A stretch of 64,000 nucleotides of DNA. Origin: Trichodelitschia bisporula. Taxonomy: Eukaryota. Location of the stretch: the NCBI GenBank assembly GCA_010356995.1, contig ML996694.1:309224-373223 (forward strand), written 5' to 3'. This document shows positions 12,803-25,247 of the stretch, piece after piece; position 1 is the first letter of the stretch; every line of letters starts with the position of its first letter. Below the pieces are notes generated by a model, which worked only from the letters and a program-made list of their open reading frames with translations, had not been told where the DNA came from and did not search any database. A program made the position numbers and the translations under genes.

Positions 12803-15646
12803 CTAAACCAGCGGCTTCTCCATCGGCGTAATAACCGCCCCCGGCTTAACCAGCACCCTCGGCTTCGTATTCGCTTGGAACGTCTCCTTAACATTCCAAT
12901 CCGGCCCAATCGGCATCCTTATACTCCGCTCATACTCCGCGCGATTGGTAAAGGGGAATGGCAACGTCGACGCGAGGTATCCCGAGTTCTTCTTGACGCG
13001 CTTGTGGCTGATGATTACGTTCTTGAGCTTCGCATCCTTGCGATTCTCCCGCGCGATCCCCTTCTCCGTCCGCACAACCCGCCCCTTGTGCTTTGCCTTC
13101 TCGCGCCGGGACACGCCCTCGCCGACCCAGTTGCCCCAGCCCGGGAGCGTGTCGTCGATTACTTTGTCACCTTCGTCGGCGATGGCGGCTTCTTTCTCGG
13201 CTTCGAAGTCGGCTTCTACGTCGTCGCCGGCGAAGGCACGACGGATGATTTCGCGCTGACTGAGCACGGACTCGGCATCTGAGTTGCCGCCTGCCTCGTC
13301 TTCGTCCTGGTAGTTGACTGTGACCCAGCCGTCGGCGTCGGGGGCGGAGTGTACTTCGCCGGGGAGGAGCTCCGGCTCGGCAGCCTTGCCGGCCTTGACG
13401 GCCGGACCCTTGGCCTTTTGGTTCTTCTTCGGCGCATCCGGCTTCTTCGCCTGCTCGGGCTTCGCAATAACCTCAGCCTTCTTCCCCTTCCCCTTCTTAA
13501 ACGCCTTACCCACCGCGCTCGGCGCGGGATTCGAAGGCGCAACCTCAATCATAGCCGGGAGGTCATCCATCTCAACATCCGACGACCCCTCCGGCTCCTC
13601 GAACTCGTTGCGCGTGGGCTTGACAGCAAGCGGCATCTTAAGCTCGGCCCTAGGACCAAAAATCTTACGCCCAATTGTCTCATCCTCCTCCACCTCCTCG
13701 CTCTCCTCGCCCGCCAACTCGCGCCGCATCCGCTCAACCGCCTCATCATTCTGCGTCTTACGCGCCGCGTCCGCGCGTTTCATGAAATCTAGAGCCCCAA
13801 GACGTGAATACGCCCCATCGTCTTTCGACCCACTGACACGCTCGAGCTGGCGCTGCAAGCTCGCATCCTGATCCGCATCGCTGTCCTCGCCCGACTCCTC
13901 ATCCTCATCACTCGTAACCCCCTCACTCCCCTCCCGCACCTCCTTGCCCTCGATCCTCCGGCGCAACTCCTCATTTTTCCTTGCCATCTCCGTGACACCC
14001 GACCGCGCATCCTCATCCCACACCGAGCGGCCGCTCTTCTTCATCGCCTTCGCCCACTTGCTGTCGCGGTGCTTAGCGCCCATACGCTCCTCCGCACGGC
14101 GACGATCGGCCGTAATCCTATCCTCCTCATCCAACTCGCTGTCACCACCGTCAGCAGCAAACGCATCCCGGTCCATGGCCGCAAGTTTCTCGCGCTCCTT
14201 GCGGTGCACACGGCGGAAAGCCTTACTCTTGATCTTTTTGATGCGGCGGGCGCGGACCTCCTCGCGAAAAAGCAACTCGCGCTGCTTGCGCAGCTCCGCA
14301 CGACGCGCCTGGACTTCCTCCAGCGGCATTTTGTTGGTCTTGAGTTCTTCGAATTCGCGGATCATGTCTTCCTCCTTGTTGGCCGTGCTCTTGGCCAGTC
14401 CGCTTTCCTCGAGGATGCTTTGGATTGTGTTTTCCAGACTCGTGAGCGGAGCGGTGGTGGATGTCGGAAGAAGGTGCTTTGAGCCGCGGGGCTGCGCGAC
14501 TTCGGGATCGACGAGCGGGAAGGTGAGGTGGTCGGCCTTGCGGTTGTGCTTGACGGTATCGACCCATCGCTCGAGCGTCTCCTTAGCCTTCTCATTGGCG
14601 ACAGCGCGGTCGATTTTGTCCTTCTGACGCTTGGGCAGGCTGGGCTCGAGCTTCGGGTCCTTCTTTAGCGGCTTGTGGAGCGTACCGACTTGCTTCGAGA
14701 CGGCCTTGACCTGCGGGTCGGCGGCGGTGGAAACGAAGTCGCGAATGTCGAACTTGTCCTCGCTGACGAGGCCGAAGGCCGACGGCGCGCGTCCTTCGTG
14801 GGTATCGACGCCGCGGAACTTTTGCTTTGCGGATTTGTTGTCTGGGTGGAGGGTTTCGACCAGGCTGTGAAGGCGGGCGAGGTCATCTTCGTCATCAGGC
14901 CCGGCGGCGTCAGACATGGACTCGTCTGATTCCTCATCGCTGGTTTCGTCGTCCGCGTCATCATCTTCGGATTCGGAAGACGCATCGTGCTTTTTTTTGG
15001 AACCATTGCTCTTCTTCCCCTCGTCTTCGCTGTCCTCGTAGGTGTCAAGCATTGTAGCCAGGTCGACAGCATCCTCGCCCAAGCTCTCTTCGTCAGACTC
15101 CTCCTCATCAGCCTCCTCATTAAGATCAAGCTCCTCATCCCCCTTCACCTCAACCTCCTTAACCTTCTTCTTCTTCTTCACCGCCTTCCCCTGACTCTCA
15201 CTCCCCCGAAACGTCCACCCCTCAAACTTCTCCTCATCACTCTCCCCAAACGCCTCATCCGAATCAATATCACTGTCCCCCTCACTATCCACCTGCCCCA
15301 TCGTCCACGTATTCCCCTCACTATCACTCCCCTCATCCACATCCAACTCATCAAACCGTCCCTTCTTCGGTCGTGTCCTAACCTCCTCTTCCTCATCCTC
15401 ATCCTCGTCTTCATCATCACTCCCCCCTCGTCTCCGCTTCCTCATCGACCCAGACGGGCCCCCCTCCGCCTGCCCAAGCCGATTCCGCCGTACCTTAGGC
15501 TTGTCCAGTCCCTGCGCACTAGCAATAGCAAACGCATCAAGCGCCCGCTTCTGAATGCGCGCCCGCTTGCGGCCCGTGGGCTTCGATTTGGCGGTGGCGG
15601 CGGGCTTCGCAGAAGGCAGCGAGCTGCGCGCAATACGAGGCGCCAT
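12803..15646 (-). CDS. UTP14: U3 snoRNA-associated protein Utp14 (SSU processome)
   Basis: 947-aa intronless ORF with KARRIKKIKSK-type motif (RARRIKKIKSKAFRRV), RAEERM, AFAGDDVEADF..EK, TLPGWGNW, LPFPF..YERSIRMPIGPDWN. Confidence 0.95.
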   Translation of the reverse strand: MAPRIARSSLPSAKPAATAKSKPTGRKRARIQKRALDAFAIASAQGLDKPKVRRNRLGQAEGGPSGSMRKRRRGGSDDEDEDEDEEEEVRTRPKKGRFDELDVDEGSDSEGNTWTMGQVDSEGDSDIDSDEAFGESDEEKFEGWTFRGSESQGKAVKKKKKVKEVEVKGDEELDLNEEADEEESDEESLGEDAVDLATMLDTYEDSEDEGKKSNGSKKKHDASSESEDDDADDETSDEESDESMSDAAGPDDEDDLARLHSLVETLHPDNKSAKQKFRGVDTHEGRAPSAFGLVSEDKFDIRDFVSTAADPQVKAVSKQVGTLHKPLKKDPKLEPSLPKRQKDKIDRAVANEKAKETLERWVDTVKHNRKADHLTFPLVDPEVAQPRGSKHLLPTSTTAPLTSLENTIQSILEESGLAKSTANKEEDMIREFEELKTNKMPLEEVQARRAELRKQRELLFREEVRARRIKKIKSKAFRRVHRKEREKLAAMDRDAFAADGGDSELDEEDRITADRRRAEERMGAKHRDSKWAKAMKKSGRSVWDEDARSGVTEMARKNEELRRRIEGKEVREGSEGVTSDEDEESGEDSDADQDASLQRQLERVSGSKDDGAYSRLGALDFMKRADAARKTQNDEAVERMRRELAGEESEEVEEDETIGRKIFGPRAELKMPLAVKPTRNEFEEPEGSSDVEMDDLPAMIEVAPSNPAPSAVGKAFKKGKGKKAEVIAKPEQAKKPDAPKKNQKAKGPAVKAGKAAEPELLPGEVHSAPDADGWVTVNYQDEDEAGGNSDAESVLSQREIIRRAFAGDDVEADFEAEKEAAIADEGDKVIDDTLPGWGNWVGEGVSRREKAKHKGRVVRTEKGIARENRKDAKLKNVIISHKRVKKNSGYLASTLPFPFTNRAEYERSIRMPIGPDWNVKETFQANTKPRVLVKPGAVITPMEKPLV

Positions 15647-15992
15647 ATTTGCGTGGTCTCACGAGTCGAAGTCCGAAATGCGTAAACTTCCGAATTGAGA
15701 TAGCGAAGTGTGTGAATCTGCGTCCGGTGCGTTGTTGTAAAGTCGCTTTGCTGCGTCGTAGTGCAGCAGGTGTTGCAGCTTTCCTCGACCCTCAAATCCG
15801 CCCACAATTTTTCCCACCCGCGCGCCAAGATTTCACCTTTTCCCGTCCGTGCGCACCTCCGACCGCAAGCCGCAACACCGCAGCTCAACACCACACCAAA
15901 GCGCATCACCGATTCCAATCCCACCTCCCATTCTTCCCTCCTTCAACCGAATACCTTACACCTCATATTCTTGCACTGCATCTCCCTCCGCA
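15647..15992. promoter_or_regulatory. Putative bidirectional promoter UTP14/MRPL27
   Basis: Only 346 bp between divergent start codons. Confidence 0.5.
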
Positions 15993-16402
15993 ATGCAGCC
16001 CACAGCCCCCCTCCTCCGCTCCATCCGGCGGCTCCAACTCACCACCAAACAAGCCGGCAAAGACTACTACAAAGGCACGGGCAGCGGATCCATGGGGCGG
16101 CACACGAAGCGCGGCGGGTACGTGGTTGAGTACCGCAAGGTGCGGTCGTATGTGTGTCCGGCGGGGCTTGACAAATTCGAGGTATGGGTTCCCGAGCGAG
16201 GAACTGGGAAATGGAGAGAGGGAGAGATAGCTAACGGGGCGCGCAGTTGACGCCCTTCGTCGCGAAGCAGATCAAGACGGAGAAGTTTACGCTGCCGCTG
16301 GATGAGGAGGGGAATCCGGATCAGAGGATTCAGGAGGAGGGCGGGCCGAAGAGTGGGACGTTGTTTTTGAGGAGGTGGAAGGAGGTGAATGGGCAGTATT
16401 AG
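15993..16402 (+). CDS. MRPL27: Mitochondrial large-subunit ribosomal protein L27 (mL41); intron 16182-16246
   Basis: LTTKQAGKDYYKGTGSGSMGRHTKRGGY..KVRSYVCP, then the spliced exon LTPFV... Intron GTATGG..CTAAC..CAG. Confidence 0.92.
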
Positions 16403-16958
16403 GTGGGGATAGGGGGGATGAGATTATGGTCATGAATGGAAGAAGCTTTCGCGCTGTGGGATATGGACTGTACATTGTGGCGTCGGGATTGGGATATCTC
16501 TATGCCCATTTGATTGCTCGAGGGTGTACAACACGAAATAGCAACTTGGGGGCGCAATCTGGACATCAGACGTCTCACTCGCATAGCGTGCATTGATGAT
16601 CCGAAGCCTTCAGTTCCATTATCGAGCCTAGACGGCATATCACGACCATTCCGTCTACATCCAGTAACAGCGAAAACCCAACCCCATGCCGCGTCTGAAC
16701 AATTTGATAACAGACATCGTCAACCCCAGAGATCCAAACCCACCAGCAAAAGCAACCATGCAGTGAAGACATCCATTTGACTACCGCGCACCGAATTACA
16801 AATGAACAGAAACACCACCATGCCCCCCTAACTCCCTTGCTGTGCACACAAACGCCATGTCAAGATCAATTAGAACCCTGCCGCACGTGCCCATGTCCAC
16901 CCATGAAATCCATACCATCCGAGTTGAAACGCACCACAAAGAACCATGCACTGTCTCG

Positions 16959-17302
16959 CTAGTCCAAGGAATTGCCAGACCGCCGTGCCTTCATCTTCTT
17001 GAACACACAAGGGGAAGCTCCCGTAGGGGGAGGGGCGTATTCCTCAGCGGGGTCCTCCGGCCGATAACGAGCGAAGATCTGCTCCGAGGGCAGAGGCCGA
17101 GCATCGGAGTCATCCGTGGGAGGGGAGCAAGCTACGTAAATTGTTAGTATCTGTCATTTAAGAGCACCCTGACTCAACATACCACGACGACGCTTCTCCA
17201 CGTAACCCTCATCGCCAAACGGATCATCGACTCGAGCACGCTTCAGGGAGTACGTGTAAAATGGACCGGGGTAGGTGACGTGCAATGGGGGAGAGGAAGA
17301 CA
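16959..17302 (-). CDS. Putative alternative 3' coding exons of MLP1 (17183-17302 and 16959-17131)
   Basis: Canonical intron 17132-17182 (GTATGT..TACTAAC..TAG). Acceptor TACTGAC..TAG at 17303. Open frame in phase with the AG|GTGAGG donor at 17432. Confidence 0.6.
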
Positions 17303-17406
17303 CTATTTTCAGTCAGTAATCGTGTCATAAAAGACAGTAGATAAAGCACACCCCAAAACGGTAAAGCAAGAGCCATAGAAGGCAGTAACGAAAAGGTGCC
17401 CGGCAC

Positions 17407-20400
17407 CTATTGTGTCTCTCCATCTCCCTCACCTCTAGCGCGCTTCTCCGCGCTGCCTCCATCCTCGCCCTCACCATCCTCGCGCGCACGCTTGGGAACA
17501 AACTGGCGAGCCCCCGGGTTCATGTTGTTGGCAGCTGGCCCACGCGGGCTGCTAGGAGCACCGGCACCACGACCGCCCGGAACCTGAGTCTGGAGAGGTA
17601 CGGCACCACCACGGCCACCTCTACCACCGCGGCCACGAGGACCCTGCGGAAGGTTGGACCCACGGCCCCCGCCTCCAGCTCCACCCTGCTGATGGGCTTG
17701 CTGCTGGGCGTGGCTCATCTGTTGCTGCACACCAGCTCCACCCTGGGCACCACCGCGACGGCCGCCCATGCCACCAGGACGAGGAATACCTGAGGAAGGT
17801 GCGTTCTGCGCCGCGAGGTTGCGCAGGGCAGCTGGACCGGTGCCAGCCTGAGGCGGACGAATTTGCGACGGCTGCCCGAAAGCAGCCTGCTGTGGCTGGG
17901 AAGGCTGCCCGAAGGCAGGCTGCTGCTGACTAGGCTGGCCAAAGGCCGCCGGCTGTTGACTAGGTTGACCAAAGGCCGCCGGCTTTTGACTAGGCTGACC
18001 AAAGGCCGCTGGCTGCTGACTAGGCTGGCTAGGTTGCCCGAAAGTCGACTGCTGCTGACCGGCCTGAGGTTGAGCCGCCTGCGGGGCGTTATTCGTATTG
18101 CCGAAAGGAGTAGCTTGAGCCGATGCCGGGCCCGTCGGAGGAGCCTGAGCGGGCTGAGCGGGCTGCTGAGGCTGGGCAGGCTGCTGGGGAGCGGCGTCCG
18201 GCCGCATAGCACGAGGCGCCCCGGATTGAAGCGTCTTAGTTTTCGCGGTCTCCCAGACTTCGCCGACGGGAGCCTGGGGATTGGCCTTCGCAACGTGTTC
18301 AACGTAGTCGAGTTTAGACGTAGCAGCCTTGACCTTGTTTTCTGCCATCTGCAGTTTCACGGAGTGGCGCTTAGACTCCATCTGGACCGCATTAGCTTTC
18401 GCTGTTTCTGCTGCCTTCGCTGCTTCTGCAAGCTTGTCGGCCATGGCCTTTTCTTGCTCCTCGCGGATCTTGGCTTCCAAAGATTCTTTCTCCTGGGACA
18501 ACTTTGCTTGGACATTGCGCGTGAGAAGATTTTTGACAACGGGATGTGTGGCGATGAGCTCTTTAAGCTCTTCAGGGCCGGGCGTCCACTTGGTGGGAGG
18601 CGCCGTGCCTTCGGTACTCACTTGCTGCTCCAGATTCCGATTCTCAGCATTCTGCTGGAAGGTGGCCTTCAGCTGCTCAATCTCCGCTGCATGCTCCTCT
18701 TTGAGCTTCTCCATAGCTGCTTCATGCTCTTGCATAATCTGCTTCCGAATTTCTTCTTTGCCATCGTTAAGCTTAGAAGAGAGCTGCTTGCGCATCACGT
18801 CGGCGCGCTTCTGGAAGGTTTCTTCGGCGGCCCGAACCCGCTTGTCGTGTTCGGCATCGAGCGATTCCCGGATGGACTTGATCTTCTCCTCAAGCTGTTC
18901 GGCGATGGACAAGTCTTCAGGATTCTCCGATGCAGAAATACCAGCGGTCGCACGAAGTACCTCGAGTTGCTCATGGGTGGTCTTAAGCTCAGCCACCACC
19001 TGTTGAACATCGGGGTTGGAAAAGGGATCCGCAGATTCCAGCTTGCCGATCTGGTTCCTCAGAGTATCCTGACCAACGTTAGTAACACAAGAGGTCTCAT
19101 TACCATATGTCCTTACCATTTGCTCCTCAAGCTCCCGAATGCGACCCTGGAGAGCCTCTTTCTCAGCGACGAGAGCCTTAGTACGCTCGATTTCTTCTTC
19201 CAGACGGCCCGTAGTAGCCGCAAGCTGATTGCGAAGCCCCACAAGCTCCATAAGCTCCTCTGCGTTGGCCGGAGCGGCATGGTCATCGATCTGACCTTCC
19301 TCGGCAGCATTGACAGTTTCCTGGGCACGAGTAAGGGCCTCGTCGCGAGCAGCCTTTGTCTGCTCCAATTCCTCCTTGACAGCTTCAAGTTCCTGGATGA
19401 GTTGAGCCTTCTCCTTGGAAGCAGCCTCGATCTGCCCATTCTTGTCACGAATGATACCATTCTGTTCGCGGGCCTTGGCCTTTGACTGGTCAATAAGCTT
19501 CGCCCGACGAGTTTCCCACTCAACCTTGCGTTCCTCCCAAACGCGGGCAATCTCTTCCTGAGCATTGGTGATCTGTTGAGGAATGCCATCAACCTGCCCC
19601 TGCAGTTGAACCTTCTCGGCAACCAAGCCATCACGCTCGGTCTCAAGTTCAGAGATGCGGGTCTCGAGATTCTCGAGTTCGGCAACACGGTTCTTGAGAG
19701 CTTCAAGTTCAGCAGGATCCACGCGGTCGTACTTCTGCATGATGTCCTGCGTCCGCTTCTGCCAGCGATCACGATCCTCCTGGATGAGGCGGAGTTCGTT
19801 CTCCTTCGCAGGGAGCTCGTTTTCGAACTGAAGAATACGAGCATGAAGCGGCTCCATCTGTTGCTGGATAACCTCGAGTTCTTGAATCTTAGCCCCAAGC
19901 TGGGCCTTCACTTGAATGGTCTCGCTACGAAGCGCAGCGTTGCTCTCGCGGAACACGTTGAGCTCGTTGAGAGTCTGCACAAGCTTGGTCTGGTTGAGTG
20001 CGTTCTGTTCCCGATCCATCTGAAGTTGGTGCTCCTGGCTCAGCTTCTCACGAACATGGTCGAGCTGAGACTGGGTGCTCTCGAGTTGAGTCTGGAGACG
20101 CTTGTTCTCCTTGACCGCCAGATCATATTGCGCATCGACGATATCCTTCTCTTGACGAAGGAAGCGGATGATCTCCTGAACATTCTCGGGAGCAGTGTCG
20201 GTGTTCGTAGTGGCATCACCTTCGGTAGTGCGATTCTTACGAAGTGCTCCAATCTGTTGGCTGACGTCCTCGAGTTGTTGATGCAGACGACGGTTTTGGA
20301 CAAGAGCCTCTTCGCGACGAAGTTTCAAGTCCGCAATCTCCTGTTCATAGCGGCCCTTGGTTTCCTCCCAGTTCGCTTCGCTCTGGGCCAAGGTGGACTT

Positions 20401-23400
20401 CGCATACTCGGCTTCGGCCTTGAAATTCGCAACTTCGGACTTGAGGTCGTTGAACTCGCCACGAATCTTCTGAACGGTCTTGGAAGCTTCCGCATGCTTG
20501 ACAAGCTCGTTCTCATAGCTCTCCTGAGCCTGACGCGTGATTTCAGCCTGTGCCTTGAGGTCCTCTTGGTGGAGCTTGGAAGTTTCCTCAAGACGCTGAA
20601 CATTGTCCTGCAGACGGGCAACCTCAGTGTCAAGCGCCTGTTTCTGCTGGTTGAACTTGACACTCGACTCCTCGTACTTCGTGCGGATTTCAGACAGTTC
20701 CGCATTGGAAGTGGTGAGCTCGGTGGAGATTTCTTCAACCCGCTTCTGAAGGTCTTGGATCTTAGCGTCCTTTTCGGACGCCGCGCGATCCATCTCCTCT
20801 TGGAGTTGAGTCTGGGTCTCGGTGAAGTTTTGCAACTCGTCCTCAGCAGCCTGGCTGATTTCTTTGTACTGTTCGACGTCCCCGAGCGCTTGGTTGAGCT
20901 CGACCTGCTTAATTTCGAGATCACGCTTGAGATCAGCGATCTCTACGAGCAGCTCCTGCTCCCGGTTTTCGTTGCTCTGTTGGGTACCAGAAGTCAGGCG
21001 AGGCTGGAGAGCCTGGGCCTTCTCTTCAGCATTGCGAAGCTGAATCTTGATTTCGTCCACGTTCGACTGCAACTGGTCACGCTGAGCCTTAGCGGTGGCA
21101 AGCTCTTCACGAGCGCTGCTGAGGCTCCGAAGCAGATCCTGAATCTGCTGTTGATTCTGTTCTTGCTGATACTGGTAGCGCATGGCTGACTTCTTGTTGT
21201 CGTCGGCTTCTTGCTCAAGTTTCTCTTCAGTGCGCTGGAGTTCAGCCTCCAGAGAATCAATGCGCGTCTGCAACCGCTTGCGAGTTTCGGCTTCATCATG
21301 CTCACGCTCGTTCTGGAGGCGCTGAAGATCGGCGATCATCTTGTTCTGACGACCCTGATCCTCACGAAGCTGAGTGTTGTCCTGGGTGAGGCGAGCCTCG
21401 ATGCTCTGCCAGAGATCGCGCGCAGCCTTAAGATTGGCGGATTCGTGACGCAAACTATCCACGAGGGCCTTAGCATCGATGAGTTCCTCGGCAACTTGTT
21501 GAGTCCGAAGATCCTGCTTGGCCGCGAGTTCGGAGAGAGACTGAGAACGCTTCTGAAGCTCGGCATTCTCAGCCTTGAGAGCGTTGTAGTTCGATTGAAG
21601 CAGCTCGTAGCGCTCCATAGACAGAGTTATGTGGCTGCTGATGCGAGCGTGCTCAGCCTGCAGCTCGGCCTTCTCCTTTGCAAGGCGGTCGACTTGCTGC
21701 TTCAGAGTAGCCTGGTCGGTGACAGCTTCCTCACGGAAAGCCTCGAAGTGCGATTTGACCTCCTTCAGGAGCTTCACCTGTTCGGCCAACCCGGCAGCGT
21801 CAAGAGTAGACTCGGTGCTCTGACCGCGCTTGCGGGCAGGAGACTGCGCCAGCATAGCATTCAGGTCTTCACCATCAGCCAGCTTGCGCTCGGCGAGAAC
21901 GCGCTTGAAGATTTCACGCTCGCGGATGTAGGAGTCGAGGCGAATTTGAAGAGATTTGATGGCGTCGGTTTGTTGCGCGTACTTCTCCCGAATTTCCTCA
22001 AGGTCGTGGCGGTCCTGTTCGATCTGGGCCTCGCGAGCCTTCGCCGACTCGCCTTCCTTCTCGTCACAGAGTTCGCGCGTAAAGTGGAGGAGCTTTTCGT
22101 TTTGCGTCATCAGCTCATTGACGTTGTGGAAGATCACAAGATGCTCGTTGATAAACTGCGCAACTTCCGGCAAGTCCTCCTGGTCGCCGCGGAGCTCTTC
22201 GCGAGCAAGCTTATCCAGGTAAACACGCTCGTTGTCGTCGAGAGCCCGAATGCCCCGCTCGCGAGACTCAAGTTCGACCATCAGCACCTTGGATTGCGCA
22301 CTGAAGTCGCGAATCTGTTCACGGAGGATGTTGGCTTCCTTGCGGAAACCTTCGCCCATACCTTGGAATTTGCGGGCATTCTTCTTCGCCTCATCGCGCT
22401 CCTTGTGCGCTGTTTCGATGACAGCAACAAGCTCTTGGACCTCAGCCTTAAGGCGGTCGTTGTCCATGCGCAGTTCATCAAACTCAGGCTGGCGGTTTTC
22501 AAGGTCACTGAGCATCTCATCGATAGTGGCAGTAAGGCGGTCGTTGCGACGACGCTCGATCTCGAGTTCTGCCCTCAGCTTAGAATGTTCACTGACCATG
22601 CGAGTGACACTCTGGGATTTCATTTGCGATCCACCAGGGGAAGAGAAAATGCCAGGAGAGCCCAGACGGGAGGGAGTGCCATAGGCCGTGAATCCGTTCA
22701 CTTCGCGACGCGGGGTGCCAGGGCGAGGAGTGCCAGCCTTCAGGGTGGTAATTTGGTTGTCCAGAGCCTCGATTTGGGTTTCCAGCTCCACGATCTGCTG
22801 GTTGGCAGTGACGCGCTCCTTGCGCTCATCTTCGATCTCGGCTTGAAGGCGGCCAATCTCATCGGCGGCGTCATCCTTCATCTGCTCGTAGGTCGCTTCA
22901 AGTTCGCGCACACGGGCCTGGGCGTCATCTGCCTTCTGCTTCTGCATGTCGAGAAGTCTACGGGCGCTGTCCAGCTCCGCTTGGAAGGATTCGGCGCGGC
23001 GGGCACTGTCTTCCTCCATGGTTTGAATCTTTGCAAAGGCGTCTTCAGCCTTGCGAGAAAGCTCGCTGACCTGGATGCGCAGAGCGCCTTCCGTGCGCTG
23101 GAGAGTTTCGACTAAGCGGGAAGATTCCTCCTGATCGCGCAAAAGTGCAGAGATCTTCGCACTCTTTTCCTTGCGGAACTTGCTAAACTCTTCATTCCGA
23201 CGCTTGAGCTCATCCGAGGTCCACTCGTTGCTCTTCTTGAGAAGTTCTATTTCCTGTTGGAGATTCTGTTCCCGGAACTTCGTGCTCATGGCAGCCGCCT
23301 CCGCTGACTGAAGCTTATCTTCCAGCTGTGAAACTTCGCGACGAAGGGCTTGGATCTTCTGCTGCTGATTGTGAAGTTCTTCCGTGAGCTTGTCGTGGAC

Positions 23401-23888
23401 TGTGGCCTTCGATTCGAGCAATGCAGTGGTGTCGCGATTCGTCTCCTCCAACTGAGAGATACGCGCATGGAGCTGCTGAACCTCGGTGGAGCTGCTGTTC
23501 GAGGCGATCTTCAGCGACTGAAGCTCTGCATCGAGAGTAAGGCGCGCGTTGTCTATCATGGAATCAGCTTGAAATCTTGCCATCAGGAACAGGTGAACAA
23601 ACCTTGCTCAGCGATCTTGTTGCGCAGTTCTTCGACGTCTTTGGTGGATTTCTCCAGGGAGGCCTTCAGCTTCTTTTCGCGATTCTGTCCAGTGCGTACA
23701 AAAGCGTCGAGTTCAATCTCTGAGCGGAGCTTGTTTTGCTCGATCTGCTCGCACTGCCGCAACTTCTCGATGATTTTTGGGAGAAGCTCGAGGATCGCAT
23801 CCTTCGTAGGAGCATCGATGAGGGTAGTGACAAATGTCTGAGGGACTTCGAACGCCGCGGCGACGTAGCCGATGTCGAGAGTCGCCAT
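17407..23888 (-). CDS. MLP1: Nuclear basket coiled-coil nucleoporin Mlp1/TPR; introns 23553-23602 and 19069-19116
   Basis: >2100-aa coiled coil with AQESYENELVKHAE (TPR/MLP1 motif), IRFLRQEKDIVD, ELNVFRESNAALR and DRWQKRTQDIMQKYDRVDP. Low-complexity C-terminus with a KRAR..KRAR NLS. Confidence 0.92.
17863..18042 (-). repeat. Six coding FGQPSQ tandem repeats (~30 nt) in the MLP1 tail
   Basis: FGQPSQPSQQPAAFGQPSQKPAAFGQPSQQPAAFGQPSQQQPAFGQPSQPQQAAFGQPSQ. Confidence 0.9.
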
Positions 23889-25247
23889 TGCGGCGGAACG
23901 TGGAATTGTGAGATAGGAAAGTGGGTTCGTGGTAGCGGAACGTGGGATCGTGAGATGTGATCGAGAATGTATGATTGACGCAAGTCAAAGGAATGGGAGA
24001 AACAGAGAATTATCCAGTGGCCCGGATGGCGCACGCCTCGATAAACAACAAGTTGGCTTCCAGTAAGGGAGTGTGGTTGTTGTTGAACGCAGAGGGTGCA
24101 GTGAAAGGGTGTGGTGTAAAGAAGATGGAGGTGCTGCACCCGTGTAGGTGAACTTGACGCGACAGGTCACTGGTCCGTGCGCACCAGGAAACCCACGCCA
24201 AGACTTCACTTTAGAACGCCAAGACTTCGACAAGAGCGAGCCTCAAACGGTCCGTGTCAACGTCACATTTATGTCCGATGTAAAAGTTCGTGTCTCTCGC
24301 ACACCAGTGGTTTGCACAACATTTGGGTGGGCAATAGATTCTATCGCAACAGGCTTCGGATGCTACCAATGGTTGATATGGCCGATTTCAGGCAACAGCC
24401 GCACAAAGAATTCTATCCCTTTGTCACTTCCAGATGGTTCCGCCGCATCATTCATACTCAACGAAACATCCCACATCACAGCACATCAGACAGGATTATT
24501 TTAGAATGTGTTTATGACTGGTTTAAGGCACTAACCCGTAGACTTCGACAGGCAACCGCGCCGCCCTCGCCCGTTAACACCCCCACCAACAAGCTCCACA
24601 CCAACCCAGCTACCTGTCTAAACCAAACCTCAACTCTCAGAACCCACATCAACGCCAGCCTATGCCGATGCCGATGCGAGCCCGATACAAGCTCGGCCGT
24701 TATCATGGTGTATCGTATGGCTGACGATGTCGACCCATGGACATCAGGCCAGTTCATGCCTTATCGCTACCCGAAAGTGAAGGGAAATCATGATGTAGTG
24801 ATCCTGGCGAGGACCACGGGCCCACATGACGTATAGTCATTACGCTGAGAAGACAACTGGAAGAATAGCACAAAAACATCATCAGAAGGCTTCAAAATCA
24901 TGCTCGCAATGTCCAAAAAAACAAAAACTGGCTCATGAGGTGGTATCTCTCCTAATCATTCAAAAAGGGAAAAGCAAAAGGTTTGACAAATGCTTTTGTC
25001 GTAGCGCCGTAAACGTCATTTCGTAAAAACTCGTGGACCAGTTCGAGGAAGCGAAACGAAGGAATGTGGTGAACGGTCGGTGTCTAGTTGTCGAGTCTTA
25101 CATGTGGTGTTCGTCAGAGGAGCCGTCTCGAGTCTAGGCATCGCTCATACTCGTGACACAGGTCATCGTGGCTTCGTTAACATGCTGAAGCTGACAAAGG
25201 AAATGGTATAATGCAGTGTAACGACGGAAGCAAACGCGTCGAATCGC

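Follow-up and report, generated by a model that had tools for sequence, protein, structure and literature searches.

In the 64,000 nucleotides (nt) of Trichodelitschia bisporula DNA analysed here (positions 309,224 to 373,223 of contig ML996694.1; hereafter "the window"), the region that follows the stop codon of an MLP1/TPR nuclear-basket gene gives rise to minus-strand RNA from which two short canonical introns are removed. The spliced exons hold an open reading frame (ORF) of 105 codons, and the evidence that this downstream frame is translated in some form, taken from its sequence, is good, if not conclusive. We favour, at roughly even chances, the reading that the three exons make up a separate, lineage-specific small protein-coding gene with a motif resembling a nuclear localisation signal (NLS), whose transcript would overlap the 3′ end of MLP1. 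A preliminary description of the window had read most of the same exons as a stop-skipping alternative C-terminus of MLP1 itself.

Splicing and coding character of the region past the MLP1 stop

Two sequencing runs (X1 and X2) of one sample from one study served as the RNA source and contributed one contig each. The runs are not recorded as RNA; the contigs placed on positions 14500–24500 behave as complementary DNA. Contigs of this kind drop rare variants and give neither junction ratios nor transcript ends. In each run, a single contig of about 7.9 kb spans 15913–24101 and omits five short segments with canonical ends, namely four introns on the minus strand (23553–23602, 19069–19116, 17303–17351 and 17132–17182) and one on the plus strand (16182–16246). 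The acceptor at 17303 is paired in the contigs of both runs with a donor GT at 17351 (GGG/GTGTGC, the slash marking the exon border). The contig piece 17352–19067 is unbroken and crosses the MLP1 stop, so the assembled RNA keeps this stop codon; and since both short introns start after it, the assembled messenger RNA (mRNA) encodes the normal MLP1 C-terminus. The first of these introns begins 55 nt past the stop, and the exon junctions fall 55 and 175 nt after it. Continuity of a contig is no proof of a single molecule, because one contig merges overlapping convergent transcripts.

These observations bear directly on the preliminary description. The features it listed are present at its minus-strand coordinates with matching phases, and the RNA contigs bear out three of the four splice sites it proposed, namely the acceptors 17303 and 17132 and the donor 17182. 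They also agree with its 120-nt exon at 17302–17183, its 51-nt intron and its last exon ending at 16959, and contain the junction 17183/17131 that it had singled out for inspection. Its central observation, that spliced exons unseen on the ORF track lie past the MLP1 stop, is thus real. What it built on them does not appear in the RNA. Donor 17432 was to be joined to 17303, and the contigs of both runs join 17352 to 17302 instead; no contig of these two runs, which come from a single sample and drop rare variants, contains the junction 17433/17302. Likewise, a stop-skipping MLP1 isoform switched by intron retention is not what the contigs represent, as they pair 17303 with the post-stop donor 17351 and keep the MLP1 stop.

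Spliced as in the RNA, the ORF extends from an ATG at 17376, which lies 30 nt past the MLP1 stop and in frame with MLP1, to a TAG at 16959, and comprises 105 codons in three exons (17376–17352, 17302–17183 and 17131–16959; Table 1). Residues 9–105 of its product are the 97-residue tail translated in the preliminary description. Three routes could conceivably lead into this one frame: initiation at ATG 17376, splicing from donor 17432, or readthrough of the single TAG. Beginning with the final base of the MLP1 stop codon and reaching into the spacer before the ATG is a 13-nt palindrome (17395–17407, minus strand), in which a single base separates two complementary 6-nt arms; TTTT follows it.

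Table 1. Positions of genes, exons, introns and motifs at the 3′ end of MLP1 (window coordinates).
Feature	Position	Strand	Evidence or remark
MLP1/TPR nuclear-basket gene	17407..24101	minus	RNA contig pieces and joints, spliced ORF, Pfam, homologues
MLP1 C-terminal bipartite basic module, KRAR + 12-residue spacer + EKRAR	17434..17493	minus	translation; homologues
Candidate donor GT of the preliminary description, AG/GTGAGG, phase 1	17431..17432	minus	sequence; unused in RNA contigs
Spacer from MLP1 stop to next ATG, 30 nt, in frame, stop-free; opens with a small GC hairpin, then a T run	17377..17406	minus	
ORF exon 1: ATG 17376, 8 codons (MALALPFW), one extra base before donor	17352..17376	minus	RNA and translation
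Intron removed in RNA, 49 nt, GTGTGC...TACTGAC...TAG	17303..17351	minus	joint 17302/17352, one contig per run
ORF exon 2, 120 nt; second basic module KRAR-12 residues-EKRRR at 17243–17184	17183..17302	minus	RNA and sequence
Intron removed in RNA, 51 nt, GTATGT...TACTAAC...TAG	17132..17182	minus	joint 17131/17183
ORF exon 3, coding part; stop TAG 16961–16959	16959..17131	minus	RNA and sequence
Region in which the minus-strand transcript and the convergent mL41 transcript abut or overlap at their 3′ ends	16403..16958		contig continuous; minus- and plus-strand introns spliced in one contig
Mitochondrial ribosomal protein MRP-L27 (mL41) gene, 114 residues, intron 16182–16246, convergent	15993..16402	plus	RNA contig, ORF, Pfam PF09809 (2.7e-13)

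Coding character was scored as log2-odds per codon with a model for which nine further long ORFs of the window served as the training set. The 105-codon frame scores 0.136, a value reached by none of 1035 stop-free dinucleotide shuffles (mean −0.137, standard deviation 0.077) and by only one of 102 open runs, each 80 codons or longer, read off-frame or antisense in window genes; among 131 genuine coding windows it ranks at the 27th percentile. The frame ranks best of the six possible frames, so that the one translated in the preliminary description is indeed the coding-like one. Base composition points in the same direction, with a GC content of 0.57–0.62 in the exons against 0.35–0.37 in the introns, and the C content drops from 0.35 to 0.15 directly past the ORF stop, as at a border between coding sequence and untranslated region (UTR). 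An open frame alone is weak evidence, as 3.45% of dinucleotide shuffles remain open.

The MLP1 gene and its terminal basic module

The upstream gene belongs to the TPR/MLP1 family, its product exceeding the Pfam gathering thresholds for PF07926 (TPR_MLP1_2; 115.5 bits, cut-off 36, E 2.2e-33) and for two Nucleoprotein-TPR domains, PF25785 (72.1 bits, cut-off 27) and PF25481 (55.5 bits, cut-off 27). As spliced, with the introns 23553–23602 and 19069–19116 (minus strand) removed in RNA, MLP1 has 2127 residues and runs from ATG 23888 to TAG 17409–17407, while unspliced DNA presents it as a single open frame at 17407–23583 on the minus strand. The ATG at 23583 that heads this long ORF sits within the 50-nt intron 23553–23602, the real start being ATG 23888 in an upstream exon; with the 5′ end of the RNA contig near 24101, the MLP1 leader measures about 213 nt. 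The coding intron 19069–19116 (minus strand; 48 nt, GTAAGG...TACTAAC...CAG) is seen only via the RNA contigs; because it is in frame and stop-free, the long ORF reads across it and gains 16 false residues.

In the protein library, 276 MLP1 homologues were found at E ≤ 1e-30, the named ones including Sarea, Pleopsidium, Cryomyces and Xylographa. The closest are only 35–51% identical, which points to an isolated lineage of Pezizomycotina. The C-terminal region of MLP1 holds AAFGQPSQ-type repeats at about 17800–18010 (minus strand; residues about 1860–1900 of the unspliced ORF). Use of the C-terminal region as a homologue query was abandoned, the result being swamped by phenylalanine-glycine (FG) and other low-complexity matches to Nup159-like nucleoporins, not MLP1 homologues; the matches drawn by the repeats lie in the FG-repeat parts of these nucleoporins.

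The translated C-terminal end of MLP1 reads ...EKRARGEGDGETQ, followed by TAG at 17409–17407 eight residues after EKRAR; the longer terminal stretch before this TAG is ...KRAREDGEGEDGGSAEKRARGEGDGETQ. Its homologues carry a conserved KRxR...GKRxR module at the equivalent position. We compared the C-termini of 70 homologues of at least 1900 residues among 120 matches listed, and in 68 of these near-full-length proteins the last basic cluster lies no more than 20 residues from the protein end; the two exceptions (P0014 and P0029) end in unrelated run-on sequence. Judged by this comparison, the canonical stop is the normal end of the family, and MLP1 would need no further exons. The regions after the stop were inspected in 17 relatives' loci that extend 500 nt or more past the MLP1 stop, anchored from the match ends. 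None of the 17 held another bipartite basic motif in the 900 nt that follow the stop, in sense or antisense frames, so the motif found here is not a common chance feature; across these loci, the second basic module appears peculiar to the present lineage. In one of the relatives' loci (L042, from 16413) the frame stays open for 261 codons past the MLP1 stop, and in two near-identical ones (L044 and L045) for 72 codons; these open frames are probably due to chance or to a neighbouring gene.

The preliminary description had further claimed that part of the downstream tail closely echoes the native MLP1 terminus. Both the MLP1 end and exon 2 consist of KRAR, a 12-residue spacer and EKR-x-R, each followed by G/GT, and their ungapped match amounts to 11 of 20 residues and 40 of 63 bases. 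This likeness, including the identical spacer length, holds up, whereas its statistical backing does not match the wording of the claim: 14 of 2000 residue shuffles reach the module score against the last 120 residues of MLP1, tblastn against the 64-kb window returns E values of about 1–4, and 113 of 500 shuffles do as well as the real sequence in local DNA alignment. With a profile built from C-termini of the homologues, the downstream module obtains 1.4 bits, equalled by 61 of 2000 shuffles; this profile has little power, the window's own MLP1 end scoring −0.7. The echo of the two modules is real but statistically weak. Local duplication is a possible, conjectural origin of the second module; two NLS-type motifs can also look alike through function alone.

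Weighing the possible readings of the downstream frame

A separate small gene accounts for the ATG, for a frame kept across two introns, for the introns themselves, for the codon signal and for the break in composition. Such a unit would start at ATG 17376 and comprise 105 codons, the 5′ end of its transcript overlapping the 3′ end of MLP1. Its product would be proline/serine-rich, belong to no known family and, from its composition, probably be disordered; because it carries a motif of the bipartite NLS type (KRAR-12 residues-EKRRR), it would probably be nuclear. The gene would be an orphan specific to this lineage, and, given the local resemblance to the terminal module of MLP1, its ORF may have arisen out of DNA adjoining the MLP1 3′ end or duplicated from it. 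Assemblies from gene-dense fungi commonly fuse the transcripts of neighbours.

Several points weigh against a separate gene. Its cost is a transcript start within or just past the end of the MLP1 coding sequence: with only 30 nt between the MLP1 stop and the ATG, an independent transcript needs either a start inside that coding sequence or a very short leader. The start context of ATG 17376 is CTTCTATGG, with a pyrimidine (T) at −3, unlike the contexts of MLP1 and mL41, which are both CCGCAATG (n = 2). Chance ORFs of 60–80 codons occur within the same spliced region, and others of 60–100 codons nearby. Homologues did not turn up either. Exon 3 (56 residues) was the part run against the big protein collections; the comparison of exon 2 and of the whole ORF covered 54 relatives' loci and the window, and the tblastn search for paralogues covered the window. 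Against a word-indexed library of proteins of 99–2000 residues, which could not reveal a fused MLP1 form of more than 2000 residues, exon 3 gave 27 candidates, none at E ≤ 10; against 1.84 billion representatives it gave no match at E ≤ 0.001, and 499 pattern matches in metagenome contigs included no relative by tblastn. Exon 3 also matched no Pfam family and had no usable look-alike in the Atlas. Searches with the whole ORF and each exon (tblastn) in the MLP1 loci of the 54 relatives returned nothing convincing (best E 0.15), all of these loci being at most 53% identical, and the relatives, at most about 50% identical in MLP1, being too distant to judge conservation. The match at E 0.15, in L006, lies upstream of MLP1 and is without basic clusters; it was rejected as chance.

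The strongest competitor, which we nevertheless regard as unlikely, is a non-coding, spliced 3′ UTR of MLP1: the mRNA would continue for at least 450 nt past the stop, two introns would be removed from its 3′ UTR, and only chance would have kept the 105-codon frame open. With exon junctions 55 and 175 nt past the stop, and a distance of more than about 50 nt on the same mRNA as the expected trigger, the transcript would then be a target of nonsense-mediated decay (NMD) dependent on the exon junction complex (EJC), which would tune MLP1 levels. The contig, continuous from the MLP1 coding region across both junctions, agrees with this, as do the position of the first junction 55 nt past the stop, the orphan status of the ORF in all homologue searches, the poor start context at ATG 17376 and the abundance of chance ORFs of 60–100 codons nearby. 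However, codon usage goes beyond that of stop-free shuffles (0/1035) and of open non-coding frames (1/102), and the sharp composition change exactly at the ORF stop is left unexplained. Two introns in one fungal 3′ UTR are unusual, and the continuity of the contig loses force as single-molecule evidence since the convergent gene is joined in the same contig. In its favour again, 3′ UTR introns are reported to govern mRNA stability in Neurospora through factors of NMD and the EJC (see below).

Markedly less probable is a minor fusion isoform of MLP1, produced either by splicing donor 17432 to acceptor 17303, with 97 extra residues, or by readthrough of TAG 17409–17407 on the mRNA spliced at 17351, with about 116. 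The sequence features of the donor-17432 model are plausible (GTGAGG in phase 1, a TACTGAC branch site, a TAG acceptor and a kept frame): donors 17432 and 17351 are both phase 1, and a single TAG parts MLP1 from a downstream frame that looks coding. GTGAGG comes at least as close as GTGTGC to the usual fungal donor consensus and is as good as GTAAGG and GTATGG, which are among the RNA-confirmed donors of this stretch. The equal length and spacing of both basic modules, each followed by G/GT, and the poor context of the independent ATG would also suit a fusion, and fungi are known to append targeting signals to C-termini through alternative splicing or readthrough (PMC4207609). Yet the contigs of both runs lack the 17433/17302 junction and pair 17303 with 17351, and an in-frame relation has a one-in-three chance of arising anyway. 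The canonical end in 68 of 70 homologues (among the matches listed) and the lack of a second module in all 17 relatives' loci speak against a fused form as well, as does the statistical weakness of the module echo. Readthrough in particular would have to act on CAA TAG GTG, not on the leaky context UGA CUA, and no unusual RNA fold follows the MLP1 stop (z −0.24). A broader version, to which we likewise give only a small chance, holds that the lineage has made the sequence after MLP1 an optional extension of the basket protein, of 97–116 residues with a second basic module and SP sites, by minor use of donor 17432 or by TAG readthrough; initiation at ATG 17376 might, in addition, yield the product of these exons by itself, giving a free small nuclear protein alongside a long basket isoform.

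Very unlikely is a separate spliced non-coding RNA that arises just past MLP1 on the same strand and encodes no protein, which would fit the transcription and splicing of the region, the lack of an ORF homologue in our searches and the lack of a family or Atlas look-alike for the proline/serine-rich would-be product, but not the codon score, the ATG-initiated frame kept over both splices or the composition shift at the ORF stop. The remaining probability goes to explanations other than those named.

For now, the outcome is mainly one of annotation: a spliced, coding-like 105-codon ORF situated 30 nt past MLP1 would escape both ORF tracks and gene callers that rely on homology. The case further illustrates that a reasoned splice prediction can have three of four sites correct and nonetheless arrive at the wrong isoform. 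If the ORF is translated, as the separate-gene reading would have it, this lineage has a small gene of its own that encodes an NLS-like motif, lies in frame next to MLP1 and recalls the terminal motif of that neighbour, which would offer a tidy case for the birth of new genes from 3′ flanks. If the introns belong to the MLP1 3′ UTR, MLP1 becomes a candidate for NMD-coupled dosage control. Only a fusion would alter the view of nuclear-basket biology, and the available RNA does not show one.

Neighbouring genes and comparison with known systems

The convergent neighbour of MLP1 encodes mL41 (Table 1); in two relatives' loci (L006 and L004), mL41 is instead found upstream of MLP1 and shares its strand, a different local arrangement of genes. 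Next to it, the Utp14 gene (ORF 12806–15646, minus strand; Pfam PF04615, 5.9e-196) has its transcript 5′ end facing that of the mL41 transcript on the plus strand, and about 150 nt between the two (15762–15912) are without RNA cover. This gap is probably a short bidirectional promoter. Sequencing-adapter letters stand at both contig ends that flank it.

Fungal peroxisomal isoforms of glycolytic enzymes offer the closest parallel to a fusion: according to Stiebler et al. 2014 (PMC4207609), cryptic C-terminal targeting signals are exposed there by alternative splicing or readthrough, the fungal readthrough cases using the leaky stop context UGA CUA. As in these enzymes, a downstream in-frame stretch carries a localisation motif, here of the NLS type. 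Unlike in these enzymes, the required junction is not seen in RNA, the stop codon TAG has a G after it, MLP1 would merely gain a second copy of a signal it possesses in any case, and conservation was not found among the relatives searched here. Among the papers listed by a literature search on Mlp1, alternative splicing and NLS in fungi, none concerns such an isoform, judged by titles and opening lines of abstracts, which is not proof of its absence.

The module itself can be set beside the terminal bipartite module of TPR/Mlp1 proteins. That of the downstream ORF has the same length and spacing but does not score as a family member with the low-power profile, and its NLS role is suggested by the motif.

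Spliced 3′ UTR introns reportedly trigger EJC-dependent NMD in filamentous fungi such as Neurospora. If the present introns belong to the MLP1 mRNA, they would resemble this system in that two introns are removed past the stop, with junctions 55 and 175 nt after it; they differ in that the exons between and after the introns look coding and that a link to the MLP1 coding region appears only in merged contigs. PMC7746235 cites Zhang and Sachs 2015 (Genetics) in connection with 3′ UTR introns, NMD and EJC factors, and mRNA stability in Neurospora.

A separate small gene would find its counterparts among the orphan genes and overlapping tandem units of compact fungal genomes; bicistronic transcripts have been reported in fungi as well (PMC10352335 and PMC11677970). 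Compared with these, the present ORF is peculiar in being in frame with the upstream gene and echoing its terminal motif, and the spacing of 30 nt is extreme. It shares with them the form of a short, intron-bearing ORF without homologues, located tens of bases from its neighbour and fused with both neighbours in the transcript assembly.

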